Origin: Candidatus Kapaibacterium sp.
GTDB taxonomy: Bacteria > Bacteroidota > Ignavibacteria > Kapaibacteriales > UBA2268
Reading direction: 5' to 3'
NCBI GenBank assembly: GCA_963665665.1
Contig: OY762428.1
Coordinates: 416,001 to 480,000 of the forward strand
DNA length: 64,000 bases
Shown: positions 12,913 to 51,981 of the stretch, piece after piece
Numbering within the stretch: position 1 is the stretch's first letter
Layout: each line of letters starts with the position of its first letter
Translations under genes and position numbers: made by a program
Notes under the pieces: model-generated
Database searches by the model: none
What the model saw: the letters and a program-made list of their open reading frames with translations, nothing else
Told to the model about the DNA's origin: nothing

Positions 12913-14418
12913 ATGACTGAAAAAAAGATTGATAATGAGAATATTGAGCAAGGACTACTGGAAAGAATAGAGAATTTTGAAAAGTCCGGAAGAATTCCGA
13001 TTCAGGAAAATATCCTGAAGGAAATTGGGAAATTTGCAGGGGAAAATGATTATCAGGTACATGTTGTGGGAGGTTATGTCAGGGATTATTTTCTGGACAG
13101 GCCCAGGCACGACCTTGATTGTACCGTTGAAGGTGATGCGATTGAATTCGCCCGGAAACTTGCCGAAAAATACAACACTAAAGCAGTGATATACGAAAGG
13201 TTCCGTACAGCCCTGGTACCCATTGGTGAATATCATTGTGAATTCGTTGGAACCAGGAAAGAAATTTATCAGGAAAATTCAAGAAAACCAATTGTAACAG
13301 AAGGGACGCTCGAAGACGATATTAAGCGCCGTGACTTTACGATAAATGCATTGGCAGCATCGCTGAATCCTGATAGGCTAGGACAGATAACCGACCTTTT
13401 CAGTGGTATTGAAGATATGAAAAAAGGTCTGCTGAAAACCCCGCTTGACCCGGAAATCACATATAGTGACGATCCGCTCAGAATGATGCGCGCTGCAAGA
13501 TTTGCATCCCAATTGGATTTTATGATAGAAGAAAACAGCTTTGACGCAATAAAGAATATGTCGGACAGGATAAGTATTATATCACAGGAACGTGTAACTG
13601 ACGAGCTTTTGAAAATTTTAAATTCAAAAAATCCTTCCAAGGGATTTTATATATTATTTTTTACCGGATTGCTGGAAAAAGTTTTCCCTGAACTTTATAA
13701 CCTTGCAGGTGTTGAAATTGTCCAGGAAGGAAATAAGGAGTTCGGCCATAAAGATGTTTTCAGGCACACATTGAAGGTTTTGGATAACCTTTCTTCAGTA
13801 AGTGATAAAACATGGCTGAGATTTTCGGCCCTTGTTCACGATATTGCAAAACCTCAGACCAAAAGATTCAGCGATGGAACAGGATGGACCTTTCACGGAC
13901 ACGAGGAGATAGGCGCCAGGAAAATGAAAGGCATTTTTAAAAGGCTTAAATTACCAATGGACAATCTCCCGTATGTTGAAAAACTGGTAAGGCTTCACCA
14001 GCGCCCTATGGCGCTTGTTGATGACGGAGTGACTGACTCAGCCGTCAGGCGGCTCGCAGTAAAAGCAGGAACTGCCCTTGAAGATCTTTTTATGCTTTGC
14101 CGTGCTGATATAACAACTAAAAATCCTAACCTGAACGCTAAATACCTTGCTAATTACGAGAAGGTAGCACAAAAGGTAATGGACGTACAGGAAAAAGATA
14201 AACTGCGGGAATTCCAGTCACCGGTCAGGGGAGAGGAAATTATGGAGATTTGCGGATTACCGCCGTCGCGTCCCGTTGGAATAATTAAAACTAATATCGA
14301 GGAAGCCATACTTGAGGGTATAATTCCGAACGAGTATGACAATGCGAAGCAATACTTCCTTGAACATAAAGACAAATGGATAAATGATCTTGTTGAACAG
14401 GGTATGATAGAAAGATAG
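12913..14418 (+). CDS. cca: CCA tRNA nucleotidyltransferase with HD domain
   Basis: VGGYVRD, DLD, RRDFTINA, DDPLRMMRAARF, LVHDIAKP motifs. Confidence 0.9.
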   Translation: MTEKKIDNENIEQGLLERIENFEKSGRIPIQENILKEIGKFAGENDYQVHVVGGYVRDYFLDRPRHDLDCTVEGDAIEFARKLAEKYNTKAVIYERFRTALVPIGEYHCEFVGTRKEIYQENSRKPIVTEGTLEDDIKRRDFTINALAASLNPDRLGQITDLFSGIEDMKKGLLKTPLDPEITYSDDPLRMMRAARFASQLDFMIEENSFDAIKNMSDRISIISQERVTDELLKILNSKNPSKGFYILFFTGLLEKVFPELYNLAGVEIVQEGNKEFGHKDVFRHTLKVLDNLSSVSDKTWLRFSALVHDIAKPQTKRFSDGTGWTFHGHEEIGARKMKGIFKRLKLPMDNLPYVEKLVRLHQRPMALVDDGVTDSAVRRLAVKAGTALEDLFMLCRADITTKNPNLNAKYLANYEKVAQKVMDVQEKDKLREFQSPVRGEEIMEICGLPPSRPVGIIKTNIEEAILEGIIPNEYDNAKQYFLEHKDKWINDLVEQGMIER

Positions 14419-15468: not shown

Positions 15469-17814
15469 CTATTGAGAATCACCAACTAAATATTTATAGC
15501 AATTTTCTGCAGCGTTTTGTTTTGATTTTTTCTTGTTTAAACCGTGGCTTGAAAACGAAAGTCTTTTACCTGAGTAATACAAATTAATATTACATTCAAA
15601 AACAGGTTCATGCACGCTGCCAATTTGCTTGTATTCATATTGTGGTAATTGGAGATTAGACTTAACGCAGAATTCCTGTAATAATCCGATATAGTTTTTC
15701 GAATCAGTATTTTTTACTATTGTTTTTTCTTCGATTATAATTCCGGATTCGTTAATTTTTTCGAGAATTTTTTTTGCGGCATCCTGCTTTGCCCTTTTTT
15801 TATTGTTTGAAAGTATCTCCACAAGAATTGTTTCCGAAGAAACTACAAGATTGCAAATACACTTTATTACGGGCTGATGATGAGGCCCGCTGATTTCAAA
15901 ATTGAATACGGGATCTGACCAATCTTCATTTTTTGCACATAATTCAAGGAGCCTGCCTACATAGTTTTCCTCTTTAACGCTATCTTTAGTATTATCCGAA
16001 ATAATTTGAGGCTGCACAGGAATTTCTTCGTCATTATCAATAGTCATAGCATATTCACCATTTTCAAAATACTTTTTTAGATCATAAATTGTTTTTTCAT
16101 CAGATATTATCTCATCCGGTAAAATATTTTGTTCCTTATTTGCAATTGAATCATCCGTTTCGATTGAAAAATTTGAATCGTTTATAACTGTTTCACAGCT
16201 ATCATTACAGCAGTTACTATCTTTGATTTCAATTATTTCAGTTTCCGGAAAATCCAGAATTTCGATCAGAATATCAGCCGCACACAGGTGAGCAGCATCT
16301 TTTTTTCTTTTTGAATAAATAAATTGTGAATTTTCTACAGTTTTGTCTTTTATGTTTAGGATTACTTTAGCATTGAAACCATCGGATTGATTATTGTATT
16401 CGAAATCGTACCTGTCGATAACATCTTTTTGTTGAAGAATATTTAAAAGCTGTACAGCAGCCCCCTGTGTCTCTTTTATATATCTTAAAGCACACTTTTT
16501 TATGGGAAACCATTCTACACTTTTTTTATCAGTTTTGAATAATAATATATAAAGAATATTCATATCAATATTCTTTGATTCAAATCTTTTTTTCAATGCA
16601 GATTCAAGTTCTGGCAAAAGTACATTTTCTTTTACGGCAGCTTTAAGTACCGGTGCAAAGTCTGATGTTTGCATTTTTACAAGCTGTTCTTCCGTGGAAT
16701 AGTTCAGTTTAATTTTTGAGGCAAAAAAAGCAGTTTCCTTCATATATTTTGCTTTTTCTTCCATAATGGCAGTATTTTTATTATTAATATCATTAGCCAT
16801 TTCATGAAGCAGGTCAATCTCGAAAGATGGTTTTCCCTGATGCAGGAAATCTTTCAACACAAATTGATTAATCAGATCGGCAATTCTTCTGATGGGGGAA
16901 GTAACGTGAGTATAAGCAGGTTCATTCAAACCATAATGCCCCTGTAATGCCAGGCCGTAAGTAGCCTTATTGAACCAGAGTTTACTACGTTCGCGCAAAG
17001 AATTCAGAAATTTTGAGTTAACTAGAGCTAAATTAATTTGTTCGAGTATTTGCTGCCTGTCAGGAGCATTCATCCTGACAGTATGATTTCTATATAGCAA
17101 CGGAATATTGTTTTCAGCGCAAAATACAGCCAAAGCTTTATTGGTTAAAATCATAAATTCCTGTACAACAATATTGCCAATATGTGCCCTGCCTTCATTC
17201 AGCGGAAGAATATTCCCTTCTTCGTTAGTATAAATTCCCTTTTTTAAATCATAAATGGCCAAAGCGCCGGTATTTTTTCTTTTTTCGAGTAACAATTCAG
17301 CTAATGAAGCCATTTCTCTGAATTTATTATAATCCTGGTCAGATTTCAAAGCCCTGATAATTGTATCGAAATCGCCGTAGCATAATCTCCGAGTGTTTGT
17401 AAAAACTGATTCATAAAATTTAAAATCAAGAATATCAGCCTGCGACGATAATTCAATTTCAAAAGTGATAGCAGCTTTTTGGGTACGCGGCAACAAACTC
17501 AGCTTAGAATCGGAAAGTGCCTTTGGCAGCATGGATTCATTCCAACCGGAATAATACCTTGTTTCAATTTTTCGGAGAGCTTCCCTGAAAATTTCGGAAT
17601 CTGGTTTTACCAATACCGGAACGTTGGCAATAGAAACCTGTAGCAAATAATTCTTGCCATTTCTTTTTAAATCAATTCCGTCGTCAAGGTCTTTGGATTC
17701 GGCCCCGTCAATAGTGCAACCTGAAACTTCCGGTTTGTCTTCAGAATAGTCTTCCGGGAATTTCAAGGATTTCAGTTCTTTTAAAATCTGAGTTGAAATA
17801 TTATTTCTCTCCAT
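15469..17814 (-). CDS. RNB-domain (RNase II/R family) ribonuclease with C-terminal dsRNA-binding motifs
   Basis: TIDGAESKDLDDGI, QEFMILTN, HYGL..AYTHVTSPIRRIADL. Two clear and one weaker dsRBM (NYVGRLLELC..GPHHQP..KKRAKQDAA; NYIGLLQEFC..HEPVF..KKKSKQNAA). Confidence 0.88.
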   Translation of the reverse strand: MERNNISTQILKELKSLKFPEDYSEDKPEVSGCTIDGAESKDLDDGIDLKRNGKNYLLQVSIANVPVLVKPDSEIFREALRKIETRYYSGWNESMLPKALSDSKLSLLPRTQKAAITFEIELSSQADILDFKFYESVFTNTRRLCYGDFDTIIRALKSDQDYNKFREMASLAELLLEKRKNTGALAIYDLKKGIYTNEEGNILPLNEGRAHIGNIVVQEFMILTNKALAVFCAENNIPLLYRNHTVRMNAPDRQQILEQINLALVNSKFLNSLRERSKLWFNKATYGLALQGHYGLNEPAYTHVTSPIRRIADLINQFVLKDFLHQGKPSFEIDLLHEMANDINNKNTAIMEEKAKYMKETAFFASKIKLNYSTEEQLVKMQTSDFAPVLKAAVKENVLLPELESALKKRFESKNIDMNILYILLFKTDKKSVEWFPIKKCALRYIKETQGAAVQLLNILQQKDVIDRYDFEYNNQSDGFNAKVILNIKDKTVENSQFIYSKRKKDAAHLCAADILIEILDFPETEIIEIKDSNCCNDSCETVINDSNFSIETDDSIANKEQNILPDEIISDEKTIYDLKKYFENGEYAMTIDNDEEIPVQPQIISDNTKDSVKEENYVGRLLELCAKNEDWSDPVFNFEISGPHHQPVIKCICNLVVSSETILVEILSNNKKRAKQDAAKKILEKINESGIIIEEKTIVKNTDSKNYIGLLQEFCVKSNLQLPQYEYKQIGSVHEPVFECNINLYYSGKRLSFSSHGLNKKKSKQNAAENCYKYLVGDSQ

Positions 17815-17893: not shown

Positions 17894-18063
17894 TGATTTT
17901 CAATAAAAATTCTTCTGATTTCAAGAATCAATTAAATATCTAATAATTTATTATTCAATTTATTCAATAATTAAGATATTAGCAAATTAATTTACATGTT
18001 TTTTTCAAAATCTGAATAATTTAATTATGATTTTGATCAGAAAATATGGTGGCTATTTTCTAA

Positions 18064-18108
18064 AATAAAAAAGGCAGGAAGTATTTATCGTTATAACTTC
18101 TTGCCTTT
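18064..18108 (-). terminator. Intrinsic terminator downstream of tRNA-Leu
   Basis: AAAGGCAGGAAGT...ACTTCTTGCCTTT stem followed by a T-run on the minus strand. Confidence 0.65.
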
Positions 18109-18125
18109 ATTAGTGTTAATCACTG

Positions 18126-18209
18126 TGCCCGGAAGAGGATTCGAACCTCCACGCCCGTACGGACACTACACCCTGAATGTAGCGCGTCTACCAATTCCGC
18201 CATCCGGGC
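18126..18209 (-). tRNA. tRNA-Leu(CAG)
   Basis: GCCCGGATGGCGGAATTGGTAGACGCG, anticodon arm CTACA-TTCAGGG-TGTAG, long variable arm, GGTTCGAATCC. CCA is not encoded. Confidence 0.96.
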
Positions 18210-31675: not shown

Positions 31676-34156
31676 TCATATTTTTAAACCCATTACAGTT
31701 ATATCATCCCTGAACGGGATACCATTGGAGAATTTATTCAATTCCTCTGATAATATAATTCTTTTTTCATTAAAATCTATATCTCTTTCGAGTAATTCTT
31801 TTAATTTTTCTTTACCAAAGAATTCATCTTTTTCATTATTCTGATCTAATATCCCGTCGGAGAACATGAAAAGCCTTGTTTCGCTTTTTAATTCCAACGT
31901 TTGCTGTGTAAAAATTCTTTCTTTCCTTACCCTACCTCCAATACCAAATTTGTCACCCTTTATCTCTTCAATTTTCCCGTTCGTTGAATACCAAAGCGGA
32001 CGCCGTGCTCCTGCAAATACGAGTTCATCGCCTTTTATCCTTATTATTGAAAGCTCCATGCCGTCCTGCTGGCTGCCAATTTCATCCTTCTGGTGGAGGG
32101 CTTTCCTGACGAGTTCATTCAGCCTGGTTAGAATATCCCTCGGTTCAAAAATTTTATCAACCAGCACAATCTGGTTTAGCAGGTCGTAGCCGATTATCGA
32201 CATAAATGCGCCCGGTACACCATGGCCCGTGCAGTCAACAACAGCTACGAATGTATATCCCCCCGCCTGGTCCACCCAGTAGAAGTCACCGGATACAACA
32301 TCTTTGGGCTTATACAGAACAAAATGCTCCTTAAATATTTCATTCATTCTCTGGGGAAATGGCAGCATAGCTTTCTGAATTTTTTCCGCGTAGTTTATCG
32401 AGTCGGTAATTTTCAGGTGTGCCTCGGATATTGTATGATTCTTTTCAGCAAGATCGTTGTTCAATTCCTCCAGTTCTGTGTTTGCAAGGCTTATCTGCCG
32501 GTTTTTATCAGCCAGGTCATTATTCAGTGTTTCAAGTTCTATATTTGCTTCTTTGATCACCTTATTTTTTGCCGCCAGCCAGTGGTTGGATTTGCGTTTA
32601 TTTCGATAAAAAAGGAACATAACTACAAGGACAAAAAAGATAAGAGCTGACAGTGCATAAAGATAATAACTCCTGGACTGCTGATATTCATTTTCTTTTT
32701 CAAGTTTTTCTATCTCTTTTGCTTTAAGGTCATTTTCCCGTTTTGCTTCAAGATTGGCAATTTTTGTCAGGGTTTCCTCGTTGGAGATGGAATCCCTCAA
32801 TGATATATGTTCTTTATAAGCCTCCAATGCTTTCTGATAGTCTTCGATTCCTATGTAATAGTTGGATAATGCTCTAAGATTATGAGAAATGCCTTCAATA
32901 TTGTCAATCTCGCGTGATAGATCAATAGCCTTATTCGAATATTCAATTGCCTTCCGATTATTTAAAGTCTTATTTAAATTATTGGTTATACCCCGATCAT
33001 TTAATTTTTTAATTATTGAATCCTGAGATTTTTTAAAATACATACTTGCAATATTACCATACAAATATGCGATGTGCCTGCTATCATTGATTTCCTTGGC
33101 AATTTCAATCGACTTTTTATAATATTCATCAGCGATTTCGAATTCCAGCTCATCCGATGCTATCTGGGCAAGGTTATCAAGACTATGTGACATTGCAGTT
33201 TTTGCGCCTGTTTTCTCATATAGTTTCAAAGCGTCCATAAAATACTTTTTTGCCGAATCCATGTTTCCACGGTAATAATACACAGCTCCCAAATTATTTA
33301 AACATTGGGCTATCCCATTGGTAGAATTATTCTTATTAAAATTTTTCAATCCAATCTTGTAATGTTTCAGAGCTTTTGAAATATCATTCAATTCGATATA
33401 AATATTTCCGATATATAAATTAGAATTCCCTATCAATTCAGGGGCATCTATTTTCTCTGCGATAGACAAACCTTCCAGACAGTATTCAAGAGCTTTCGCA
33501 TGTTTGGATTGTCTGTACTTTGAAATCCCAATATTGCTTATAACTCTCACCATATTTATACTATCCTGTGCTTTTTTAAAATATTCCAATGCTTCAGAAT
33601 ATTGCTCAATTGATTTTTGAATTTGGTTTCTATTCGATGATGCTATTGCCAATCCGTTATATATCTTACCAAGTATTTTTGGATCCCTGTTGTATTCAAT
33701 ATTCTTCAGGGCTTGATCAAAATAATATTCAGAACTGTCGTAAATATTCTGACGGCCAAAACATATTCCAATATCACTAAAAATTATCGGGATCATATCT
33801 TCGGTATTCTTTTCCTTGGACAGGTTTAAGGTAATATTGTACAGGTTTATGGCATTTTCGAAATCAAAATTCTCTTCATAAACTGAAGCCATGGCACGGT
33901 TTGCCTTTACTATCCATTTATCGGAATTTATCTTTTCTGATAAGGAAATAGCCATTCTAATATTTTCCAAAGATTTATTCTTGTCTGACTTCATATAATA
34001 ATCAGATATACTTATCAACAGTTTTACTTTATTTGTATCTTCCTTCGCATTCGGTAATTCGGCAAGAAGAGAATCAATTTTATCCTGTCCCTGTTTTTTG
34101 GCAAAAGCAGGCGTTAACATTATTAATGCTAACAAAATGGCCAGTATGTTTTTCAT
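31676..34156 (-). CDS. TPR-TM-coiled-coil-PP2C (SpoIIE) receptor phosphatase, copy D
   Basis: Signal peptide, TPRs, TM, SINYA, VSGDFYW, DCTGHGVPGA, FSDG, DDIT. Confidence 0.92.
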   Translation of the reverse strand: MKNILAILLALIMLTPAFAKKQGQDKIDSLLAELPNAKEDTNKVKLLISISDYYMKSDKNKSLENIRMAISLSEKINSDKWIVKANRAMASVYEENFDFENAINLYNITLNLSKEKNTEDMIPIIFSDIGICFGRQNIYDSSEYYFDQALKNIEYNRDPKILGKIYNGLAIASSNRNQIQKSIEQYSEALEYFKKAQDSINMVRVISNIGISKYRQSKHAKALEYCLEGLSIAEKIDAPELIGNSNLYIGNIYIELNDISKALKHYKIGLKNFNKNNSTNGIAQCLNNLGAVYYYRGNMDSAKKYFMDALKLYEKTGAKTAMSHSLDNLAQIASDELEFEIADEYYKKSIEIAKEINDSRHIAYLYGNIASMYFKKSQDSIIKKLNDRGITNNLNKTLNNRKAIEYSNKAIDLSREIDNIEGISHNLRALSNYYIGIEDYQKALEAYKEHISLRDSISNEETLTKIANLEAKRENDLKAKEIEKLEKENEYQQSRSYYLYALSALIFFVLVVMFLFYRNKRKSNHWLAAKNKVIKEANIELETLNNDLADKNRQISLANTELEELNNDLAEKNHTISEAHLKITDSINYAEKIQKAMLPFPQRMNEIFKEHFVLYKPKDVVSGDFYWVDQAGGYTFVAVVDCTGHGVPGAFMSIIGYDLLNQIVLVDKIFEPRDILTRLNELVRKALHQKDEIGSQQDGMELSIIRIKGDELVFAGARRPLWYSTNGKIEEIKGDKFGIGGRVRKERIFTQQTLELKSETRLFMFSDGILDQNNEKDEFFGKEKLKELLERDIDFNEKRIILSEELNKFSNGIPFRDDITVMGLKI

Positions 34157-34165
34157 GTAAAACCC

Positions 34166-36406
34166 TTAAAGTTTTATTCCTAAAACAGTTATATCATCCC
34201 GAAGGCTTTCTTCTGATCTGAATTCAATAAACTCACTATTCAGGGTTTCGGAAACTGAACTTAATTGTTCACTGCTTGTAAAAATAGTCCTAAGACGTTC
34301 TTTACCAAAGAATTCCTCATTCTCATTATTCTGGTCGATAATTCCATCCGAGAACATGAAGAGTTTTGTATCCCTGTTCAATTTCAGGGATTGCTGAGTA
34401 AATACCCTTTCTTTGCGAACCCTGCCGCCAATTCCAAATTTGTCACCCTTTATCTCTTCAATTTTTCCATTCATGGAATACCACAAAGGCCTTCGTGCAC
34501 CTGCAAATATAAGCTCATCGCCTTTTATCCTGGTGATAGAAAGCTCCATGCCGTCCTGCTGGCTGCCTATTTCATCCTTCTGATGAAGGGCTTTTCGGAC
34601 AAGTTCATTCAGCCTGGTTAGAATGTCCCTCGGTTCATAAATTTTATCCACCAGCACAATCTGGTTAAGCAGGTCATAGCCGATGATTGACATGAATGCA
34701 CCTGGTACGCCATGACCGGTACAGTCAACAACAGCCACAAATGTGTACCCGCCGGACTGCTCCACCCAGTAGAAGTCCCCGGAGACAACATCCTTTGGTT
34801 TATAGATTACAAAATGTTCTTTGAACATCTCGTTCAATCTTTCCGGGAAAGGCAGCATAGCCTTCTGGATTTTTTCCGCGTAATTAATCGAATCAGTAAT
34901 TTTCTGATGTGCCTCGGATATTGTATGGTTCTTGTCGGCAAGGTCATTGTTCAATTCCTCCAGTTCGGTGTTTGCAAGGCTTATCTGCCTGTTCTTATCA
35001 GCCAGGTCATTATTGAGTGTTTCAAGTTCGGTGTTAGCTTCTTTGATCACCTTATTTTTGGCAGCAAGCCATTGATTGGATTTTCGTTTATTGCGGTAAA
35101 AGAAGAACATAACAACAAGAACAACAAAGATCAGGGCAGATAGTGCATAAAGGTAATTACTTTTTGACTCCTGATACTCCTTTTCTTTCTTCAGAATTTT
35201 AATTTCCTTTGCCTTCAACTCATTTTCTCTCTTAGCTTCCAGGTTTGCAATTTTTGTCTTTGTTTCCGATGAAGAAATTGAATCTTTTAGAATTATATGC
35301 TCCTTAAAGGCTTCAAGAGCTTTTTTGTATTCACCCTTTTCAGCAAAAACAATTGATAAATACTTAAGGTATATCTGGTAACCATCTATGTTGCCAATTT
35401 CTGAATTAATATTTGCGGCTTTTTCAAAATATTCTTTTGCTTTCTTTAAGTTATTTATTTTGTTAAAACTTATATTTAATTTTTTTCCATCAAGCTGACT
35501 AAGTACCGAGTCTTGCGTTAGATTGAAATAAACTGAACCAATATTACCGAGGGCGAATGCTATGCCATTTCTATTTCCCATTTCTTCAAAATATTTTAGA
35601 GATTTATGATGATACTCAAGTGATTTATCGTACTCTAATAAAGCACTATATGTTAGTCCGATATTTAAAAAATTTATTGCACTGCCTCTTATATCTCCGA
35701 TTTCCTCATCAAGCCTAAGAGATTTATTGTAGTATTCAAGAGCTTTTTTAAAGTTTCCTTGTTCGTGATAAGTAAGTCCAATATTACCAAGAACTCTGGC
35801 AATACCTTCTTTATTCCCGATTTCTTCATCAAGCTTTAGAGCTTTGAAATAATAATCAAGTGCTTTTTCATAATTTTTTTGCTGATCAAAAACATTTCCG
35901 ATATTCGAGTAAGTTGTTGATTGACCACGTTTATTTTCCATTTCTTCAAACATCTGTAGCACTTTAAAATAATATTCAAGTGCTTTGTCGAAATTGGATT
36001 GATTATCATATATGATTCCAATATTTCCAAGATTTTTTGCAATTTCTTGTTTATTCCCAATTTCTCTCAATATTTTTAGAGCTTTTAAAAAATTATCAAG
36101 TGCTATGTTGAAATTTGATAAAACAATATTGCATCTAGCTATTGAATTCAATGACTTAGCTTCACCTTCTTTCCAGTTCAATTCTTTTGATAGTGATAGA
36201 GCCATTTCTCCATATTCTAAACCTTTTTCAGGATTTACGAAATAGTAAGAAAGAGATAATTCATTCATAGTTTTCACCTTATTGGTATCCTCCTTCGCAT
36301 TCGGCAATTCAGCAAGAAGGGAATCGATTTTTTCCTGCCCCTGTTTCTGGGCAAAAGAGGGTGTTAGCATAATAAATGCCAGTATCAGAGGTAGCACCTT
36401 TTTCAT
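34166..36406 (-). CDS. TPR-TM-coiled-coil-PP2C receptor phosphatase, copy A
   Basis: Same architecture; likely ATG at 36406 after TAAGGATT. Confidence 0.92.
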   Translation of the reverse strand: MKKVLPLILAFIMLTPSFAQKQGQEKIDSLLAELPNAKEDTNKVKTMNELSLSYYFVNPEKGLEYGEMALSLSKELNWKEGEAKSLNSIARCNIVLSNFNIALDNFLKALKILREIGNKQEIAKNLGNIGIIYDNQSNFDKALEYYFKVLQMFEEMENKRGQSTTYSNIGNVFDQQKNYEKALDYYFKALKLDEEIGNKEGIARVLGNIGLTYHEQGNFKKALEYYNKSLRLDEEIGDIRGSAINFLNIGLTYSALLEYDKSLEYHHKSLKYFEEMGNRNGIAFALGNIGSVYFNLTQDSVLSQLDGKKLNISFNKINNLKKAKEYFEKAANINSEIGNIDGYQIYLKYLSIVFAEKGEYKKALEAFKEHIILKDSISSSETKTKIANLEAKRENELKAKEIKILKKEKEYQESKSNYLYALSALIFVVLVVMFFFYRNKRKSNQWLAAKNKVIKEANTELETLNNDLADKNRQISLANTELEELNNDLADKNHTISEAHQKITDSINYAEKIQKAMLPFPERLNEMFKEHFVIYKPKDVVSGDFYWVEQSGGYTFVAVVDCTGHGVPGAFMSIIGYDLLNQIVLVDKIYEPRDILTRLNELVRKALHQKDEIGSQQDGMELSITRIKGDELIFAGARRPLWYSMNGKIEEIKGDKFGIGGRVRKERVFTQQSLKLNRDTKLFMFSDGIIDQNNENEEFFGKERLRTIFTSSEQLSSVSETLNSEFIEFRSEESLRDDITVLGIKL

Positions 36407-39400
36407 AAACAATCCTTAAAGTTTAAATCCAAAAACAGTTATATCATCTCGGCGCTCGGTGTTGGCCGCGAATTCATCGAATTCCTCGTTCAGCTTAGCA
36501 GAAACAGATTGAAGTTCCATACTACTTTCCAGAATACCTTTCAGCCTCGCCTTGCCGAACAGATCATCTTTCTCATTATTCTGATCTATTATCCCGTCGG
36601 AGAACATGAAGAGCTTTGTTTCTCCTGTTAATTTCATGGATTGCTGGGTAAATACCCTTTCTTTGCGAACCCTGCCGCCTATTCCAAATTTATTGCCCTT
36701 GATTTCCTCAATCTTTCCATTCGTAGAATACCACAAAGGCCTTCGTGCCCCTGCAAATATAAGTTCATCGCCTTTTATCCTTATTATTGAAAGTTCCATG
36801 CCGTCCTGCTGACTGCCTATTTCATCCTTCTGATGAAGGGCTTTTCGGACAAGTTCATTCAGCCTGTAAAGTATATCTTTGGGTTCATAAACTTTATCCA
36901 CCAGTACTATCTGGTTTAGCAGGTCGTAGCCGATTATCGACATGAAGGCGCCGGGCACGCCATGGCCGGTACAATCAACCACAGCTGCAAATGTGAAACC
37001 ACCGGACTGCTCAACCCAGTAGAAGTCACCGGATACAACATCTTTGGGCTTATACAGAACAAAATGCTCTTTAAATATTTCATTCATTCTCTCAGGAAAT
37101 GGCAGCATTGCCATCTGAATTTTTTCGGCATAATTAATTGAATCAGTGATTTTCTGGTGAGCCTCGGAAATAGTGTGGTTCTTTTCGGCAAGGTCATTGT
37201 TCAATTCCTCCAGTTCTGTGTTGGCAAGGCTTATCTGCCGATTCTTATCAGCCAGGTCATTATTCAGTGTTTCAAGTTCTATATTTGCTTCTTTGATCAC
37301 CTTATTTTTTGCCGCCAGCCAGTGGTTGGATTTGCGTTTATTTCGATAAAAAAGGAACATAACTACAAGGACAACAAAGATCAGGGCAGATAGTGCATAA
37401 AGGTAATTACTTTTTGACTCCTGATACTCCTTTTCTTTCTTCAGAATTTTAATTTCCTTTGCCTTCAACTCATTTTCTCTCTTAGCTTCCAGGTTTGCAA
37501 TTTTTGTCTTTGTTTCCGATGAAGAAATTGAATCTTTTAGAATTATATGCTCCTTAAAGGCTTCAAGAGCTTTTTTGTATTCACCCTTTTCAGCAAAAAC
37601 AATTGATAAATACTTAAGGTATATCTGGTAACCATCTATGTTGCCAATTTCTGAATTAATATTTGCGGCTTTTTCAAAATATTCTTTTGCTTTCTTTAAG
37701 TTATTTATTTTGTTAAAACTTATATTTAATTTTTTTCCATCAAGCTGACTAAGTACCGAGTCTTGCGTTAGATTGAAATAAACTGAACCAATATTACCGA
37801 GGGCGAATGCTATGCCATTTCTATTTCCCATTTCTTCAAAATATTTTAGAGATTTATGATGATACTCAAGTGATTTATCGTACTCTAATAAAGCACTATA
37901 TGTTAGTCCGATATTTAAAAAATTTATTGCACTGCCTCTTATATCTCCGATTTCCTCATCAAGCCTAAGAGATTTATTGTAGTATTCAAGAGCTTTTTTA
38001 AAGTTTCCTTGTTCGTGATAAGTAAGTCCAATATTACCAAGAACTCTGGCAATACCTTCTTTATTCCCGATTTCTTCATCAAGCTTTAGAGCTTTGAAAT
38101 AATAATCAAGTGCTTTTTCATAATTTTTTTGCTGATCAAAAACATTTCCGATATTCGAGTAAGTTGTTGATTGACCACGTTTATTTTCCATTTCTTCAAA
38201 CATCTGTAGCACTTTAAAATAATATTCAAGTGCTTTGTCGAAATTGGATTGATTATCATATATGATTCCAATATTTCCAAGATTTTTTGCAATTTCTTGT
38301 TTATTCCCAATTTCTCTCAATATTTTTAGAGCTTTTAAAAAATTATCAAGTGCTATGTTGAAATTTGATAAAACAATATTGCATCTAGCTATTGAATTCA
38401 ATGACTTAGCTTCACCTTCTTTCCAGTTCAATTCTTTTGATAGTGATAGAGCCATTTCTCCATATTCTAAACCTTTTTCAGGATTTACGAAATAGTAAGA
38501 AAGAGATAATTCATTCATAGTTTTCACCTTATTGGTATCCTCCTTCGCATTCGGCAATTCAGCAAGAAGGGAATCGATTTTTTCCTGCCCCTGTTTCTGG
38601 GCAAAAGAGGGTGTTAGCATAATAAATGCCAGTATCAGAGGTAGCACCTTTTTCATAAACAATCCTTAAAGTTTAAATCCAAAAACAGTTATATCATCTC
38701 GGCGCTCGGTGTTGGCCGCAAATTCATCGAATTCCTCGTTCAGCTTAGCAGAAACAGATTGAAGTTCCATACTACTTTCCAGAATACCTTTCAGCCTCGC
38801 CTTGCCGAACAGATCATCTTTTTCATTATTCTGATCTATTATCCCGTCGGAGAACATGAAGAGCTTTGTTTCTCCTGTTAATTTCATGGATTGCTGGGTA
38901 AATACCCTTTCTTTGCGAACCCTGCCGCCTATTCCAAATTTATTGCCCTTGATTTCCTCAATCTTTCCATTCGTAGAATACCACAAAGGCCTTCGTGCCC
39001 CGGCAAATACAAGTTCATCGCCTTTTATCCTTATTATTGAAAGTTCCATGCCGTCCTGCTGACTGCCTATTTCATCCTTCTGATGAAGGGCTTTTCGGAC
39101 AAGTTCATTCAGCCTGTAAAGTATATCCCTCGGTTCAAAAATTTTATCAACCAGTACTATCTGGTTTAGCAGGTCGTAGCCGATTATCGACATGAAGGCG
39201 CCGGGCACGCCATGGCCGGTACAATCAACCACAGCTGCAAATGTGAAACCACCGGACTGCTCAACCCAGTAGAAGTCACCGGATACAACATCTTTGGGCT
39301 TATACAGAACAAAATGCTCTTTAAATATTTCATTCATTCTCTCAGGAAATGGCAGCATTGCCATCTGAATTTTTTCGGCATAATTAATTGAATCGGTTAT

Positions 39401-39620
39401 CTTCTGGTGTGCCTCGGATATAGTATGGTTCTTGTCGGCAAGGTCATTGTTCAATTCCTCCAGTTCGGTGTTTGCAAGGCTTATCTGCCTGTTCTTATCA
39501 GCCAGGTCATTATTCAGTGTTTCCAGTTCAATATTTGCTTCTTTGATAACCTTATTTTTGGCAGCAAGCCATCGATTGGATTTGCGCTTGTTGCGATAAA
39601 AAAGGAACATAACTACAAGG
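35121..39620. repeat. Direct tandem duplication with 2250-bp period
   Basis: 35121-37370 matches 37371-39620; it appears identical over the TPR part and near-identical over the PP2C part. Confidence 0.9.
36416..38656 (-). CDS. TPR-TM-coiled-coil-PP2C receptor phosphatase, copy B (chimeric)
   Basis: Ectodomain protein sequence is identical to copy A; phosphatase domain is nearly identical to copy C. Confidence 0.9.
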   Translation of the reverse strand: MKKVLPLILAFIMLTPSFAQKQGQEKIDSLLAELPNAKEDTNKVKTMNELSLSYYFVNPEKGLEYGEMALSLSKELNWKEGEAKSLNSIARCNIVLSNFNIALDNFLKALKILREIGNKQEIAKNLGNIGIIYDNQSNFDKALEYYFKVLQMFEEMENKRGQSTTYSNIGNVFDQQKNYEKALDYYFKALKLDEEIGNKEGIARVLGNIGLTYHEQGNFKKALEYYNKSLRLDEEIGDIRGSAINFLNIGLTYSALLEYDKSLEYHHKSLKYFEEMGNRNGIAFALGNIGSVYFNLTQDSVLSQLDGKKLNISFNKINNLKKAKEYFEKAANINSEIGNIDGYQIYLKYLSIVFAEKGEYKKALEAFKEHIILKDSISSSETKTKIANLEAKRENELKAKEIKILKKEKEYQESKSNYLYALSALIFVVLVVMFLFYRNKRKSNHWLAAKNKVIKEANIELETLNNDLADKNRQISLANTELEELNNDLAEKNHTISEAHQKITDSINYAEKIQMAMLPFPERMNEIFKEHFVLYKPKDVVSGDFYWVEQSGGFTFAAVVDCTGHGVPGAFMSIIGYDLLNQIVLVDKVYEPKDILYRLNELVRKALHQKDEIGSQQDGMELSIIRIKGDELIFAGARRPLWYSTNGKIEEIKGNKFGIGGRVRKERVFTQQSMKLTGETKLFMFSDGIIDQNNEKDDLFGKARLKGILESSMELQSVSAKLNEEFDEFAANTERRDDITVFGFKL

Positions 39621-41146
39621 ACAACAAAGATAAGAGCTGACAGTGCATAAAGATAATAACTCCTGGATTGCTGATATTCATTTTCTTTTTCAAGTCTTTC
39701 TATCTCTTTTGCTTTAAGTTCATTTTCCCGTTTAGCTTCAAGGTTTGCAATTTTTGTCTGTGTTTCCTCGTTAAAAATAGAATCTTTAATTGTGATATGT
39801 TTTTTATATGTTTCAAGGGCTTTTTGATACTTATCATTTGCTGCATACGCATCTGAAAGTAATTTAGAATATGTTTTGGTATTTAATAAATCTCCGACTT
39901 TGATAAATAATGCAACAGATTTCTCTAAGTAATCAATTGCTTTTAATAAATAATTTTTTCGCGTATTGGATGAAATATTTTGATATTCTTTTCTTTCCAT
40001 ATTAATGGAATCCTGTGAGATAGAATAATATGCTAATCCTAATGAACCTAATGATACTGCCATATCATTTTCACTATTATATGATTCTGCCAAATGAAGA
40101 GATTTTTCCAATAACTCTATTGCTTTATAATAATTTTCCTTTTTAATATGTACAATTCCCATATTTTCATAAGCCACAAGTAAAGCATTGTTATCATTGA
40201 TTTCTAATGCCACTTCCAATAGGTTTTTAAAACTCTCCATTGCTTCATCATAATTTAATTTCTCTAAATTAATTAGCCCAATACTATTTAAAATATATGC
40301 TTCATTTTGAACATTGCCCATTTTCCTTGTTATTGGCAGAGCATGTTCAAAATACTCAAGCGCTTTAGCATTGTCATTCTTGTTTTTATAAATAATACCA
40401 ATACTGAGATCTGCTAAAACAACACCATCTAAGTCATCAATTTCTTCAAACACTTTCATGGCCTTATGAAAATAATCAATAGCTTCGTCAAAATCTGATT
40501 TGGCATCATATATTTGACCGATATTCAAAAAAATAGTGGATATGATTTGTTTATCATTCAAACTTTTGCCGATTTTGAGAGATTTCTTGTACAATTTCAT
40601 AGCTTCGTCAAATTTGTTCTGATCCTTATACACATTTGCTAAGTTAACTGATGATATTGCCAACCCTCTTTCATCACCCAATATCTTCTTCATTTCAATT
40701 GACTTTTTTGAATATTTTATTGCTTTGTCAAAATTGGATATGTTATAATAAAGCATAGACATATTGCCGTATAGTTGTGCCTTCCACCAGGTATTATCAG
40801 TCGTTTTTGCTATTTTCAAGGCCTTATCAAAATATTCAGTCGCCATATCATATTTTGATAAGAATAAATAATTAGTTGCAATAGCATTCAAGGCTCCGAT
40901 TATACCACTCTTCCATCCGATATCTTTTGCCAACTTTAACGATTTCTTACCGAACTCAATCCCCTTATCCGGATCGCTAACATTATATGCAAGAGAAATC
41001 ACAGCCAAAGTTCGAACTTTGTTTGTATCAAGTTTCATATCCGGCAATTCAGCAAGAAGGGAATCGATTTTTTCCTGCCCCTGTTTCTGGGCAAAAGAAG
41101 GTGTAAGCATAATAAATGCCAGTATCAGAGGTAGTATCTTCTTCAT
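38666..41146 (-). CDS. TPR-TM-coiled-coil-PP2C receptor phosphatase, copy C
   Basis: Same architecture with a distinct, longer TPR ectodomain. Confidence 0.92.
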   Translation of the reverse strand: MKKILPLILAFIMLTPSFAQKQGQEKIDSLLAELPDMKLDTNKVRTLAVISLAYNVSDPDKGIEFGKKSLKLAKDIGWKSGIIGALNAIATNYLFLSKYDMATEYFDKALKIAKTTDNTWWKAQLYGNMSMLYYNISNFDKAIKYSKKSIEMKKILGDERGLAISSVNLANVYKDQNKFDEAMKLYKKSLKIGKSLNDKQIISTIFLNIGQIYDAKSDFDEAIDYFHKAMKVFEEIDDLDGVVLADLSIGIIYKNKNDNAKALEYFEHALPITRKMGNVQNEAYILNSIGLINLEKLNYDEAMESFKNLLEVALEINDNNALLVAYENMGIVHIKKENYYKAIELLEKSLHLAESYNSENDMAVSLGSLGLAYYSISQDSINMERKEYQNISSNTRKNYLLKAIDYLEKSVALFIKVGDLLNTKTYSKLLSDAYAANDKYQKALETYKKHITIKDSIFNEETQTKIANLEAKRENELKAKEIERLEKENEYQQSRSYYLYALSALIFVVLVVMFLFYRNKRKSNRWLAAKNKVIKEANIELETLNNDLADKNRQISLANTELEELNNDLADKNHTISEAHQKITDSINYAEKIQMAMLPFPERMNEIFKEHFVLYKPKDVVSGDFYWVEQSGGFTFAAVVDCTGHGVPGAFMSIIGYDLLNQIVLVDKIFEPRDILYRLNELVRKALHQKDEIGSQQDGMELSIIRIKGDELVFAGARRPLWYSTNGKIEEIKGNKFGIGGRVRKERVFTQQSMKLTGETKLFMFSDGIIDQNNEKDDLFGKARLKGILESSMELQSVSAKLNEEFDEFAANTERRDDITVFGFKL

Positions 41147-48617: not shown

Positions 48618-48754
48618 TTTTTTTCCTCTTGGAATTATATTAAAAATTTCTATTTTTGTTCAGGCGTTTTTAAAAGCCCGGGGGACTTCCCGAAGGACAA
48701 TCCCCCGTTACCAGTCATGCAGAGTCTGTAAATGTGCTTTTAATTGCGCCTTTT

Positions 48755-49342: not shown

Positions 49343-49468
49343 GATAAACTCCAAAATTAATTAAATAAGAATAATTAATGATTTAACATCCTATGTTAAA
49401 CCTGATATTTAAATTTTATACCAAATATGTTTCAAACATAATATCTTATTTATAACTGTGTTTAATTA

Positions 49469-51844: not shown

Positions 51845-51981
51845 TTTTTTCCTCTTGGAATTATATTAAAAATTTCTATTTTTGTTCAGGCGTTTTTAAA
51901 AGCCTGGGGGACTTCCCGAAGGACAATCCCCCGTTACCAGTCATGCAAAGTCTGTAAATGTGCTTTTAATTGCGCCTTTTT

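Follow-up and report, generated by a model that had tools for sequence, protein, structure and literature searches.

Enzymes of the RNase II/R superfamily use a CSD1-CSD2-S1 ‘anchor’ to thread single-stranded RNA into the catalytic channel. To our knowledge, all characterized RNase II/R enzymes choose their substrates by means of single-strand-binding OB-fold domains, and the main characterized bacterial nucleases directed against double-stranded RNA (dsRNA) are RNase III and its relatives. RNase R (E. coli Rnr and the B. subtilis enzyme; PDB 5xgu, 8cdu/8cdv) carries HTH-CSD1-CSD2 ahead of its RNB catalytic domain and S1 plus a basic tail behind it; it requires a single-stranded 3′ overhang, and also handles structured RNA. 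RNase II (E. coli Rnb; PDB 2ix0/2ix1/2id0), with the order CSD1-CSD2-RNB-S1, is single-strand specific. A haloarchaeal RNB-only ‘RNase R’ is active despite having neither CSD nor S1, which would show that the RNB core can work alone; it is not known to have dsRNA-binding domains (dsRBDs) or a counterpart of the helical domain, HEL, described below. Eukaryotic Dis3L2 has CSDs and S1, recognizes oligo-U tails and is devoid of dsRBDs and HEL; published abstracts describe it as an RNB enzyme that works alone, independently of the exosome, on structured RNA. Cyanobacterial Zam, as portrayed in the excerpt of PMC9145284, has two CSDs with redox-active cysteines in CSD1, an S1 domain and a degenerate active site.

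Judged from its sequence, the gene studied here is a member of a distinct, uncharacterized branch of this superfamily. The window, by which we mean the whole 64-kb stretch of DNA that was analysed, contains its complete coding sequence, whose product has the order RNB-HEL-dsRBD1-linker-dsRBD2-dsRBD3 (Table 1). An in-frame stop codon upstream of the ORF makes an N-terminal extension of the protein impossible.

Table 1. Features of the nuclease gene and its upstream flank (positions are those of the window).
Feature	Residues	Positions	Strand	Basis or remark
Complete CDS, RNB-HEL-dsRBD1-linker-dsRBD2-dsRBD3		15469..17814	(-)	781 aa plus stop codon 15469-15471
N-terminal lead	1-28	17731..17814	(-)	One short helix at 8-16 (DSSP)
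RNB catalytic domain	29-326	16837..17730	(-)	Pfam PF00773, phmmer and Foldseek
RNB motif I, IDGAESKDLDD	35-45	17680..17712	(-)	Catalytic-type aspartates D36, D42, D44, D45
HEL, family-specific six-helix domain	327-450	16465..16836	(-)	Occupies the place of the S1 domain
dsRBD1, degenerate	451-522	16249..16464	(-)	Model, motifs, HHalign
Linker, acidic, mostly disordered	523-614	15973..16248	(-)	pLDDT and composition
dsRBD2, canonical	615-692	15739..15972	(-)	GPxH loop and KKxAK helix start
dsRBD3, canonical	705-781	15472..15702	(-)	Best Pfam dsrm stretch 708-776
Hairpin and U-run, intrinsic-terminator-like		18062..18105	(-)	Between tRNA and nuclease gene
tRNA-Leu(CAG), context, outside the gene		18125..18209	(-)	Same strand as nuclease gene, 310 bp upstream

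A reading of this DNA from its letters alone (the sequence-only reading) had placed an RNB domain with intact catalytic aspartates almost at the N-terminus, leaving no room for cold-shock domains and with no recognizable S1 domain after it, and our analysis bears this out. The Pfam RNB profile aligns with residues 32–325 (E 4.8e-58; 197.4 bits against a gathering score of 29.3; profile positions 9–325 of 326). The closest sequence by phmmer is B. subtilis RNase R (8cdu_C, E 2e-30), and the closest fold by Foldseek is also RNase R (8cdv_C, E 1.2e-22), with RNase R, RNase II and Dis3L2 spanning E 1e-22 to 1e-16 (Dis3L2: 9cy7_A, E 1.1e-20). The lead of only ∼28 residues before the RNB fold is too short for cold-shock domains, and a Pfam scan of the protein returned no CSD or S1 family even at E ≤ 1. 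Each of the four motif I aspartates is present in 68 of 69 aligned family rows, the remaining row having a gap. Motif IV, TSPIRR, keeps its T, S, P and both arginines (R309 and R310) in 69/69 rows, while position 308 is I in 59 and L in 10. With its catalytic motifs intact, the RNB core is predicted to be a metal-dependent hydrolytic 3′→5′ exoribonuclease. The segment equivalent to the RNase R wedge (residues ∼240–283) is ∼22 residues shorter than in the B. subtilis enzyme and is modelled as two helices.

The full-length AlphaFold2 model, built on the 69-sequence alignment, has a mean pLDDT of 86.9 and is exclusively helical over residues 333–462, consistent both with the helical region that the sequence-only reading had seen after RNB and with the lack of S1. 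Modelled alone, HEL reaches a pLDDT of 93.8. It has no Pfam match and no Foldseek match in the PDB at E ≤ 1e-3 (best E 0.98), and an ESM Atlas look-up with residues 326–530 yielded nothing usable. The stretch that follows, first described as a weak dsRNA-binding motif, is a real one: the model has an α-β-β-β-α unit at 452–519, and HHalign matched the profile of residues 451–522 to those of the two clear dsRBDs with probabilities of 98.3 and 98.2 (E 2e-14 and 5e-14), against 0.5 for a control comparison of HEL with dsRBD2. dsRBDs contact RNA through GPxH in the β1–β2 loop and KKxAK at the start of helix 2; in dsRBD1, KKxA is present without the third lysine, and the β1–β2 loop is shortened and has no GPxH. 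The continuous high pLDDT over residues 1–528 suggests that RNB, HEL and dsRBD1 form one rigid module.

This putative module is joined to the remaining dsRBDs by a linker that does have the acidic character first ascribed to it (22 D/E against 6 K/R in the 84 residues 529–612), with pLDDT below 50 at 529–571 and 585–612; family-wide, the linker varies between 17 and 107 residues and is net negative in 58/69 sequences. The C-terminal repeats, taken at first sight as two clear dsRNA-binding motifs, are matched by Pfam dsrm (PF00035) in two stretches (E 1.4e-23; 83.6 bits against 23) and have the α-β3-α topology in the model (618–689 and 708–780, by DSSP); Foldseek partners the dsRBD units with the dsRBDs of TARBP2, Loquacious, DRB4 and MLE. 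Both RNA-contacting motifs are present in dsRBD2, and dsRBD3 carries them with S for A. The KKxAK lysines and alanine are kept in 59–64 of 69 rows for dsRBD2 and 60–64 of 69 for dsRBD3, and the loop glycine and histidine in 64/69 and 50/69 rows, respectively, for dsRBD2 and 47/69 and 39/69 for dsRBD3. Pfam, the model and motif conservation thus agree that dsRBDs stand where RNase II/R enzymes have CSD and S1.

Among known enzymes, RNase R is the best match in both sequence and fold, with like residues in motifs I and IV, and RNase II is alike in RNB fold and, by prediction, in chemistry. The product differs from both in its accessory domains, having HEL and three dsRBDs and lacking CSD and S1. 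The nearest functional analogy for an uncapped RNB channel is the isolated RNB domain of E. coli RNase R; that protein, however, is an artificial truncation without a recruiting module, whereas members of the natural family carry HEL and dsRBDs as well. RNase III is similar in its dsRBD (TIGR02191 aligns residues 700–775 with model positions 145–218), and duplex RNA is the presumed shared substrate class, but the RNase III catalytic domain is absent (none by Pfam; TIGR02191 scores 42.8 bits against 166.25, from the dsRBD part only), and we predict an exonuclease with three dsRBDs, not an endonuclease with one. Zam, Rnb and the plasmid RNB homologues of cyanobacteria belong to the same superfamily; identity with Zam was ruled out, as our protein lacks CSD and S1 and has an intact active site.

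The combination of RNB with dsRBDs recurs widely. Searching 1.84 billion representatives with the HEL profile produced 611 matches at E ≤ 1e-3, so that the RNB-HEL-(dsRBD)n family comprises at least 611 clusters at 50% identity. In the newly fetched HEL representatives, RNB directly precedes HEL in 113/122 and at least one dsRBD is present in 116/122, and Pfam found both RNB and dsrm in 10/10 diverse members. Across 205 family sequences, 198 have at least one dsRBD and 199 have HEL, figures that are partly circular because the scoring HMMs were built from 69 of those sequences. A scan of 185,579 species genomes (one genome per species) confirmed 377 relatives, a lower bound since the scan was pattern-seeded; their distribution is scattered, with members in Ignavibacteriota/Bacteroidota, Chloroflexota, Cyanobacteriota, Actinomycetota, Pseudomonadota, candidate phyla and Methanosarcina. 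No fused longer form (1368–3905 aa) was found at E ≤ 1e-20 among 7997 scored candidates, which is weak evidence. As far as these sequences can tell, the architecture is selected and not accidental. The family is rare, scattered and apparently unstudied: among the papers listed by literature searches outside subscription journals, no title or abstract describes an RNB–dsRBD enzyme. The sequence-only reading had not foreseen that the family would be populated, would possess a helical domain as its signature and would be markedly represented on plasmids and in archaea.

At its own locus the gene stands alone. It lies, as first remarked, close to a tRNA gene, the only match of an Rfam scan near the gene, and it converges on a downstream hydrolase gene. 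The hairpin and U-run between the tRNA-Leu and the gene suggest that the nuclease gene is transcribed alone; the hairpin, which folds at −14 kcal/mol (z −4.0; 0/200 shuffles fold equally well), was read from the sequence and is not in the list of a simple consensus scan. A sigma-70 consensus scan near the gene was uninformative (23 sites against 13.7 expected). The term ‘singleton’ was therefore apt in the sense of a single-gene unit, and those window neighbours that were compared never recur beside relatives, whose loci show no synteny with the window. ‘Notably AT-rich’, on the other hand, overstated the case: the GC content of 0.340 is third lowest among the 34 ORFs of at least 150 aa in the window (mean 0.396, sd 0.038), ∼1.5 sd low and at the low end of the range without being an outlier. 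The surroundings are housekeeping genes (DnaE, NadA/NadC, RuvX, IspF, PGK, GAPDH), and there are no plasmid or mobile genes in the 64 kb.

Elsewhere, the family is frequent on plasmids. With the full-length query, tblastn matched 177 of 72,556 plasmid records, and 24 of 60 evenly spaced samples of these matches reach the family-specific HEL region. Acaryochloris marina MBIC11017 has copies on at least four plasmids (NC_009926, NC_009927, NC_009929, NC_009930), and the full RNB-HEL-dsRBD architecture occurs on plasmids of Streptomyces, Rhodococcus, P. aeruginosa and Acaryochloris. The C-terminal 455 residues alone matched five plasmid records and no phage record, but this search, with its single diverged query, is too insensitive, and plasmid members were therefore judged by coverage into HEL in the full-length search. 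Phage records gave 38 matches, all with less than 80% query coverage; in the 30 matches listed, the alignment is confined to the RNB core and extends no further than residue 376. No phage form bearing a dsRBD appeared in the searched collection. When 1034 ORFs from 80 loci were clustered, no conserved partner emerged beyond the nuclease itself, the exceptions being promiscuous families (kinase/response regulator, ABC ATPase) and, in Methanosarcina, synteny at the level of the genus; plasmid neighbourhoods likewise have no common partner. A ParA/MinD-type ATPase gene lies near nine loci, mostly cyanobacterial, at 0.4–9 kb (≤1.3 kb in seven). A small gene adjoining the ParA-type ATPase was considered as ParB and dropped, since it has no Pfam match. 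On a 44.7-kb plasmid of Synechococcus elongatus, an RNB-only relative adjoins the CyRepA1 replication gene. That the family is so strongly represented on plasmids hints at a link between its function and mobile elements; ‘general RNA surveillance’ leaves this unexplained.

With dsRBDs in the place of CSD and S1, RNA-contacting motifs kept and the nuclease site intact, a dsRNA-directed 3′–5′ exoribonuclease is the natural reading. We put at ∼0.55 the probability that the protein works alone as an accessory 3′→5′ exoribonuclease on duplex or strongly structured RNA, and belongs to an RNB-HEL-(dsRBD)n branch distinct from housekeeping RNase R. The dsRNA-targeted nuclease proposed in the sequence-only reading thus stands as regards architecture, intact site and dsRBD motifs, while the preference for dsRNA is plausible from the domains (dsRBDs are also capable of protein contacts); the clearance of antisense RNA, also proposed there, is a possible role. 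In the scheme that we infer for catalysis, RNA binding, substrate class and cellular role, the confidently modelled RNB, helical domain and degenerate dsRBD would together replace the CSD1-CSD2-S1 anchor; the two canonical dsRBDs, on their flexible acidic tether, would capture A-form duplex RNA independently of sequence, keeping the 3′ end of the duplex close to the uncapped RNB channel. The targets would be RNAs with long duplexes, such as sense/antisense pairs and long hairpins, and the role a non-essential, horizontally mobile and accessory form of RNA surveillance outside any multi-gene system. Because the wedge-equivalent segment is shortened, the enzyme may stall at duplexes instead of degrading through them. 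We advance only tentatively, and with some doubt, the broader proposal that RNB-HEL-dsRBD proteins, those of Methanosarcina included, are prokaryotic dsRNA-specific exoribonucleases that would destroy duplexes from their 3′ ends independently of RNase III, with HEL and dsRBD1 acting as a duplex-end clamp or wedge, and would have spread on plasmids because removal of sense/antisense duplexes helps a plasmid to control its copy number or to evade host immunity that senses RNA. The excerpt of PMC5961385 describes the dsRNA-cleaving enzymes of archaea as unidentified.

The shortened wedge is also the main argument for an unlikely but still credible reading in which the dsRBDs dock on a stem and RNB only trims a single-stranded 3′ tail back to the duplex, in the manner of RNase II; rRNA, tRNA or sRNA precursors or duplex overhangs would then be matured or blunted and dsRNA would not be destroyed. 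According to the excerpt of PMC5714204, the tri-helix wedge of E. coli RNase R is necessary for unwinding, the wedge-deleted enzyme stalls a few nucleotides before a stem, and RNase II has a short helix in its wedge region, as does our protein, in which two helices, as opposed to three, are modelled. The same excerpt reports, however, that the isolated RNase R RNB domain, without its CSD/S1 cap, enters duplexes, and in our protein HEL and dsRBD1 could supply a wedge; nor is there an rRNA- or tRNA-processing operon context, the terminator-like hairpin lying between gene and tRNA. The plasmid data raise a different question, namely whether the nuclease chiefly serves plasmids, for instance by clearing the antisense/target duplexes that govern copy number or maintenance, or by eliminating structured or duplex RNA that host immunity would sense, the window copy being domesticated or stranded. 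The counts given above, the multiple Acaryochloris copies, the full-length plasmid members, the nearby ParA/MinD-type genes and the RNB-only relative beside CyRepA1 all favour this, as does the report, in the excerpt of PMC10989914, that loss of an RNase III homologue raises cyanobacterial plasmid copy number. Nevertheless, the plasmid counts are raw, no partner is common to the plasmid neighbourhoods, many relatives lie on long chromosomal contigs and the window copy sits among housekeeping genes, and we regard a mobile-element function as distinctly unlikely.

Slightly less probable again is an anti-phage effector that destroys phage-derived dsRNA, or host RNA upon infection, the role suggested in the sequence-only reading, which named defence-island association as a check. 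A patchy, transfer-prone distribution, a single-gene unit, a low-end GC content and the plausibility of a dsRNA-directed nuclease as an antiviral design speak for it, but comparison with known systems supports neither the role nor the association. No family in PADLOC-DB 2.0 matches the protein at E ≤ 1, although newer systems would be missed since PADLOC dates from 2023. Of 402 neighbours collected within ±3 genes, 150 (from 30 related loci) were scanned, and 15 match any PADLOC model at E ≤ 1e-8; the sole full-length, defence-specific match is a type IV restriction enzyme. Two others checked by Pfam are UvrA and a RecD2 helicase, and most of the rest appear from their model names to be generic-domain matches (radical SAM, cysteine desulfurase, kinases, subtilases). 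A divergent housekeeping RNase R/II of the lineage, the possibility against which the sequence-only reading had set its own proposal, is very unlikely: many members are annotated ‘ribonuclease R’ by the JGI source and the tree is fairly taxon-coherent in the FCB/Chloroflexota clade, but scores fall far below the cut-offs of the RNase R equivalogs (TIGR02063, 175.7 against 597.85; NF008648, 92.6 against 982; alignment to the RNB core only) and the RNase II equivalogs (NF003455, 90.6 against 542; TIGR02062, 72.3 against 641.9), the family is rare and patchy, its synteny is not conserved, and cyanobacterial carriers have, in the excerpts of PMC9145284 and PMC10989914, two chromosomal RNB genes besides their plasmid homologues. 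On these grounds, the protein is not a canonical RNase R and, as judged from the 64-kb window, is most probably not the housekeeping RNase R of its lineage. Least probable of all, and close to negligible, is a ‘pseudonuclease’ that binds RNA but has lost catalysis, of the kind seen in yeast Ssd1 or cyanobacterial Zam; such proteins have arisen repeatedly within the RNB family (excerpt of PMC8097288), but here the motif I aspartates and motif IV arginines are kept in 68–69 of 69 rows, unlike the degenerate site of Zam.

A natural fusion of an RNB exonuclease with tandem dsRBDs, the dsRNA-directed enzyme that we favour, would be an alternative solution to the disposal of dsRNA. As far as we know, archaea lack RNase III, and the Methanosarcina members bear on how archaea handle duplex RNA. 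HEL has no solved structural counterpart, and a processive nuclease recruited by dsRNA could serve as a reagent, for example against dsRNA contaminants. The family is easy to study, being encoded by a single gene with confidently modelled domains, and genetically manipulable genera, Methanosarcina, Synechococcus and Streptomyces, are among its carriers. That it is frequent on the large plasmids of cyanobacteria, actinomycetes and pseudomonads suggests a role in plasmid biology.

The nuclease gene is a single unbroken ORF (see the table). In the ORF list every frame opens with the first start codon past a stop, so no N-terminal extension of the gene product is possible, and the ∼28 residues ahead of the RNB fold are too few for cold-shock domains (CSDs) to fit, as the sequence-only reading had claimed. 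Pfam detected neither a CSD nor an S1 domain in the protein even at E≤1, and the segment after RNB, where S1 had likewise been called unrecognizable, is all-helical in an AlphaFold2 model. Two stretches matched dsrm (E 1.4e-23). With both the domain and the catalytic residues present, the protein belongs to the RNB superfamily, but it differs from RNase R and RNase II in lacking CSDs and S1 and in failing the NCBIfam equivalog cut-offs; these models aligned with the RNB core only and scored 175.7, 92.6, 90.6 and 72.3 against cut-offs of 597.85, 982, 542 and 641.9, respectively. The NCBIfam RNase III model aligned solely through its dsRNA-binding domain (dsRBD; residues 700–775 of our protein). 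Identity with RNase III was rejected, as the RNase III catalytic domain is absent, and so was identity with Zam, whose CSDs, S1 domain and degenerate site contrast with the lack of both domain types and the intact site in the present protein.

The AlphaFold2 model, built from a 69-sequence family alignment, had a mean pLDDT of 86.9 and was confident over residues 1 to 528. It places the RNB fold first, followed by a stretch of helices only, an alpha-beta-beta-beta-alpha unit (dsRBD1), a partly disordered linker and two more alpha-beta3-alpha units (dsRBD2 and dsRBD3). In Foldseek searches of the PDB, the N-terminal half paired with RNase R (8cdv_C, E 1.2e-22; 5xgu), and further with Mycoplasma RNase R, Dis3L2, RNase II and Rrp44, while the C-terminal units paired with dsRBDs of TARBP2, Loquacious, DRB4 and MLE. 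Using phmmer against PDB sequences, RNase R 8cdu_C matched residues 33–343 (E 2e-30) and DRB4 matched residues 708–766 (E 2.3e-5). The two C-terminal repeats described as clear dsRBMs are therefore dsRBM folds, on the dsrm matches, the modelled units and the Foldseek pairings alike. The preceding ‘weak dsRBM’ proved to be a genuine yet degenerate dsRBD; the dsRBD1 family profile matched the two clear dsRBD profiles with HHalign probabilities of 98.3 and 98.2, as compared with 0.5 for the negative control, the helical domain against dsRBD2. The linker is acidic, as had been noted, and strongly so, with 22 D/E versus 6 K/R in 84 residues.

The catalytic aspartates are likewise intact: each of the four in motif I is present in 68/69 rows of the family alignment, with a gap in the last row. 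In motif IV (TSPIRR), T, S, P and both R occur in all 69 rows, while at position 308, 59 rows have I and 10 have L. In dsRBD2, 59–64 of the 69 rows retain the lysines and alanine of KKxAK, with the loop Gly in 64 and the loop His in 50; the corresponding values for dsRBD3 are 60–64, 47 and 39. In dsRBD1, KKxA is present, the third lysine is missing and the beta1-beta2 loop is shortened. On this conservation, dsRBD2 and dsRBD3 look functional, as does the nuclease site, and the proximal dsRBD looks specialized. The segment equivalent to the unwinding wedge of RNase R is ∼22 residues shorter than in the Bacillus subtilis enzyme and forms two helices in the model. For Escherichia coli RNase R, the wedge has been reported as required for duplex unwinding and dispensable for RNA binding and cutting (PMC5714204).

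The architecture is that of a family. Of 7999 proteins scored in a word-indexed search, 1920 reached E≤1e-3, and PF00773 and PF00035 occurred together in nearly all of the best 120 of these; Pfam found RNB and dsrm in 10/10 diverse members, RNB starting within the first 40 residues in nine. Among 205 sequences (84 ORFs from loci and proteins P0001–P0121), the commonest arrangement was RNB-HEL-dsRBD1-dsRBD-dsRBD (103/205), HEL being the helical domain, then RNB-HEL-dsRBD1-dsRBD (38/205) and RNB-HEL-dsRBD-dsRBD (20/205), with variants spanning one to six dsRBDs; these counts are partly circular, since the purpose-built domain HMMs were trained on 69 of the same 205 sequences. Linker length varies between 17 and 107 residues, and 58/69 linkers are net negative. 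HEL modelled alone (residues 327–452; 65-sequence alignment from the window and fetched loci) is a six-helix domain (pLDDT 93.8), for which Foldseek found no PDB counterpart at E≤1e-3 (best E 0.98) and an ESM Atlas look-up of the region gave no usable match. Its profile had 611 matches at E≤1e-3, 329 of them at E≤1e-10, among 1.84 billion representative proteins. RNB lay directly ahead of HEL in 113 of 122 newly fetched representatives, and 116 had at least one dsRBD; the remaining nine without RNB ahead are short (136–426 aa) with HEL at their start, as would fit incomplete gene calls. Given this company, HEL is a family signature, no other context having been seen among these representatives.

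A pattern-seeded scan of one genome per species (185,579 species) yielded 397 candidate stretches and 377 confirmed relatives, a lower bound because of the seeding, and their distribution is patchy over bacteria and Methanosarcina. By record titles, the best 80 of the 377, which were retained, include Ignavibacteria, Melioribacteraceae and Kapaibacteria; Saprospiraceae, Prolixibacteraceae and Crocinitomicaceae in Bacteroidota; Caldilinea, Anaerolineaceae and Ktedonobacteria in Chloroflexota; many cyanobacteria, Armatimonadota, Thiothrix, Bdellovibrionales and candidate phyla; and, in archaea, one Nanoarchaeia bin and eight Methanosarcina/Methanosarcinales genomes, the taxon labels of bins being the submitters’ own and some evidently unreliable. 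In a quick IQ-TREE search of 76 RNB+HEL segments (nine fragments excluded), our protein fell in a 16-row clade (SH-aLRT 96) of Ignavibacteriota, Kapaibacteria, Bacteroidales, Chloroflexota and bins labelled ‘uncultured Hyphomicrobiales’; its nearest relative, at locus L001, is 54% identical. Phylum labels required 20 changes on the tree, where 11 is the minimum and shuffled labels averaged 43, so that taxa cluster yet inheritance is clearly not strictly vertical. Several ‘uncultured Hyphomicrobiales’ bins (L001, L004–L007, L013, L014) group with Ignavibacteriota/Kapaibacteria, a ‘Pirellulaceae’ contig is nearly identical to a cyanobacterial one (L033 versus L038; branch lengths 0.002), and a ‘Crocinitomicaceae’ contig to Crocosphaera watsonii (L068 versus L074); such mismatches look like unreliable bin labels or very recent transfers.

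The Methanosarcina rows form a single clade (support 100), which branches among bacterial groups. Their carriers (L044, L046, L047, L052, L058, L060, L061, L067) encode a ∼590–615-aa RNB-HEL-dsRBD×2 protein, and a conserved cupin gene lies upstream of the nuclease gene at the Methanosarcina/Methanosarcinales loci. The clade is notable as a dsRBD-bearing nuclease in a domain that one account describes as without known dsRNA nucleases (PMC5961385). P0003, a 526-aa protein from another assembly, is a near-identical copy of ours with one substitution; it diverges just past dsRBD1 (residues 523–526, window ∼16234–16245) and ends three residues on, consistent with a frameshift or an assembly error where the low-complexity linker begins. 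What is left would be an RNB-HEL-dsRBD1 protein lacking both canonical dsRBDs.

Relatives are publicly annotated as ‘RNB domain-containing ribonuclease’ or ‘ribonuclease R’, so the sequences are already in databases. Full-text searches, with most subscription journals outside their scope, found no description of an RNB-dsRBD enzyme; what is new against the literature searched is the combination, the RNB kind of enzyme itself being known.

The nuclease gene is convergent with the hydrolase gene downstream of it. Between the gene and the upstream tRNA-Leu lies a stable hairpin with a U-run after it (−14 kcal/mol, z −4.0), and the gene is most likely monocistronic. It had been called notably AT-rich; its GC of 0.340 is indeed third lowest of 34 window ORFs of at least 150 aa, but only ∼1.5 sd under the mean. 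Close by is the gene for a second RNA 3′-end enzyme, of the CCA-adding/poly(A)-polymerase family; since it is not seen again next to relatives at the 80 loci, we take its proximity to be coincidental. Elsewhere in the window, the near-identity of the middle two of four TPR-SpoIIE genes indicates a recent tandem duplication; beside them lie a TPR histidine kinase, a DUF6272 protein and another SpoIIE protein. GAPDH is flanked by two phosphoglycerate-kinase (PGK)-family genes, and type-IX-secretion sorting domains occur in three window proteins, which, taken with the position in the tree, points to an organism of the FCB group.

Locations of the nuclease gene, the parts of its product, other window features and ParA/MinD-type genes near relatives
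Feature	Location	Description
Nuclease gene	window 15469..17814 (-)	781 aa
RNB domain	residues 32-325	Pfam, E 4.8e-58
Helices only	residues 333-462	AlphaFold2
dsRBD1 unit	residues 452-519	AlphaFold2
Disordered linker	residues 529-571, 585-612	AlphaFold2
dsRBD2, dsRBD3 units	residues 618-689, 708-780	AlphaFold2
Best dsrm stretch	residues 708-776	Pfam
CCA-adding/poly(A)-polymerase-family gene	window 12913-14418 (+)	HD domain; two genes off, opposite strand, convergent
Four tandem TPR-SpoIIE (PP2C-type) phosphatase genes	window 31676-41146 (-)	
Middle two TPR-SpoIIE genes	window 34166-36412, 36416-38662	94% identity over 748 aa
Divergent PGK paralogue	window 41353-42669 (-)	438 aa; 30% identical to canonical PGK
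Canonical PGK	window 44068-45261 (+)	E 8.9e-148
Duplicated two-gene module	window 46197-52563 (-)	∼800-aa BNR/Sortilin-type protein with type-IX-secretion sorting tail, each gene preceded by a ∼195-aa ORF without Pfam match
ParA/MinD-type ATPase gene	0.4-3.3 kb away	L033, L034, L037, L038, L048, L049, L062, L071
ParA/MinD-type ATPase gene	8.8 kb away	L022

Cyanobacterial copies are often plasmid-borne. Cyanobacterial genomes are reported to encode two or three RNB proteins each (PMC10989914), and some carry RNB homologues on endogenous plasmids (PMC9145284). By tblastn, 177 of 72,556 plasmid records, as a raw count, matched our protein; of 60 matches sampled at even spacing, 24 reached residue 397 or beyond, into HEL, and most others were canonical rnr/rnb copies carried by chromids or large replicons. 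Acaryochloris contributed 14 plasmid records, strain MBIC11017 having copies on at least four plasmids. Plasmid proteins of Streptomyces, Rhodococcus, Pseudomonas aeruginosa and Acaryochloris are RNB-HEL-dsRBD×2–3, that of Vibrio coralliilyticus has RNB and three dsRBDs, and a 462-aa relative on a 44.7-kb Synechococcus elongatus plasmid (L086), with RNB as its sole Pfam match, has a GIY-YIG nuclease gene on one side and a metal-resistance cluster on the other, with the replication gene CyRepA1 just past GIY-YIG. Nine loci, most of them cyanobacterial, have a ParA/MinD-type ATPase gene near the nuclease gene; a small gene overlapping the ATPase gene had no Pfam match. On Acaryochloris plasmids (L026, L028, L030, L081), RecA and a RecD2-type helicase adjoin the nuclease gene. 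On V. coralliilyticus p380 (L082) and a P. aeruginosa conjugative plasmid (L083), the gene sits amid runs of small hypothetical genes, with a RES/Xre toxin–antitoxin pair 2.5 kb upstream in the former and a PAPS-reductase-family gene directly upstream in the latter, surroundings that presumably resemble plasmid accessory or leading-region gene sets. A match on a Rhodococcus pyridinivorans plasmid (H92, NZ_CP096039.1) is split in two, over an IS3-family transposase and a ‘double-stranded RNA binding motif domain-containing protein’, and appears to be a family member interrupted by an insertion sequence.

The plasmid copies and the ParA/MinD-type neighbours would suit a function that serves plasmids; the gene studied here lies among DnaE, NadC/NadA, a Memo-AMMECR1 fusion, hydrolases, RuvX, IspF, PGK and GAPDH, with no mobile or defence gene in the 64 kb, and we regard this explanation as distinctly unlikely. 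The same housekeeping window speaks against the anti-phage defence proposed from sequence. No PADLOC model matched the protein; of the 402 neighbours collected (±3 genes, 80 loci), the first 150, from 30 loci, were scanned with the 2023 library and 15 matched at E≤1e-8. Most of these we read as generic domains (radical SAM, cysteine desulfurase, histidine kinases, subtilases), two are UvrA and a RecD2/YrrC helicase by Pfam, and the sole full-length, defence-specific match, from a Levyibacteriota bin, was a type IV methyl-directed restriction enzyme. An association with defence islands, suggested as a check, did not appear at these 30 loci. Clustering of 1034 ORFs from the 80 loci revealed no partner gene common to the family, and none of the window neighbours recurs beside relatives. 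The 38 phage records that matched did so in the RNB core only, none with 80% query coverage, and ended by residue 376 in the 30 matches listed; the C-terminal half had no phage match. Phage defence is quite improbable.

Public annotation as ‘ribonuclease R’ would agree with a divergent housekeeping RNase R of the lineage, a reading made very improbable by equivalog scores far under the cut-offs, with the RNB core alone aligned, and by the rarity of the family. With motifs I and IV conserved, a pseudonuclease is hardly tenable. With its shortened wedge, the enzyme may degrade through the duplex or may do no more than trim up to it; that it is a trimming enzyme we consider unlikely.

In RNase II and RNase R, CSD1-CSD2-S1 form the entrance that threads a single-stranded 3′ end to the RNB active site, and RNase R also unwinds duplexes by its wedge. 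In the present family this single-strand entrance is lost and dsRBDs stand in its place, and we therefore propose a three-step mechanism. Tethered by the flexible acidic linker, dsRBD2 and dsRBD3 would catch duplex RNA; the confidently modelled RNB-HEL-dsRBD1 module would then take hold of a 3′ end located at the duplex terminus or close to it; and the RNB site would hydrolyse the RNA 3′→5′, processively. The motifs and folds are intact, and from them we infer catalysis, dsRNA binding and this geometry. As the biological role of the enzyme we favour the accessory clearance of duplex or antisense-paired RNA, with a probability of about 0.55 for the proposal as a whole.
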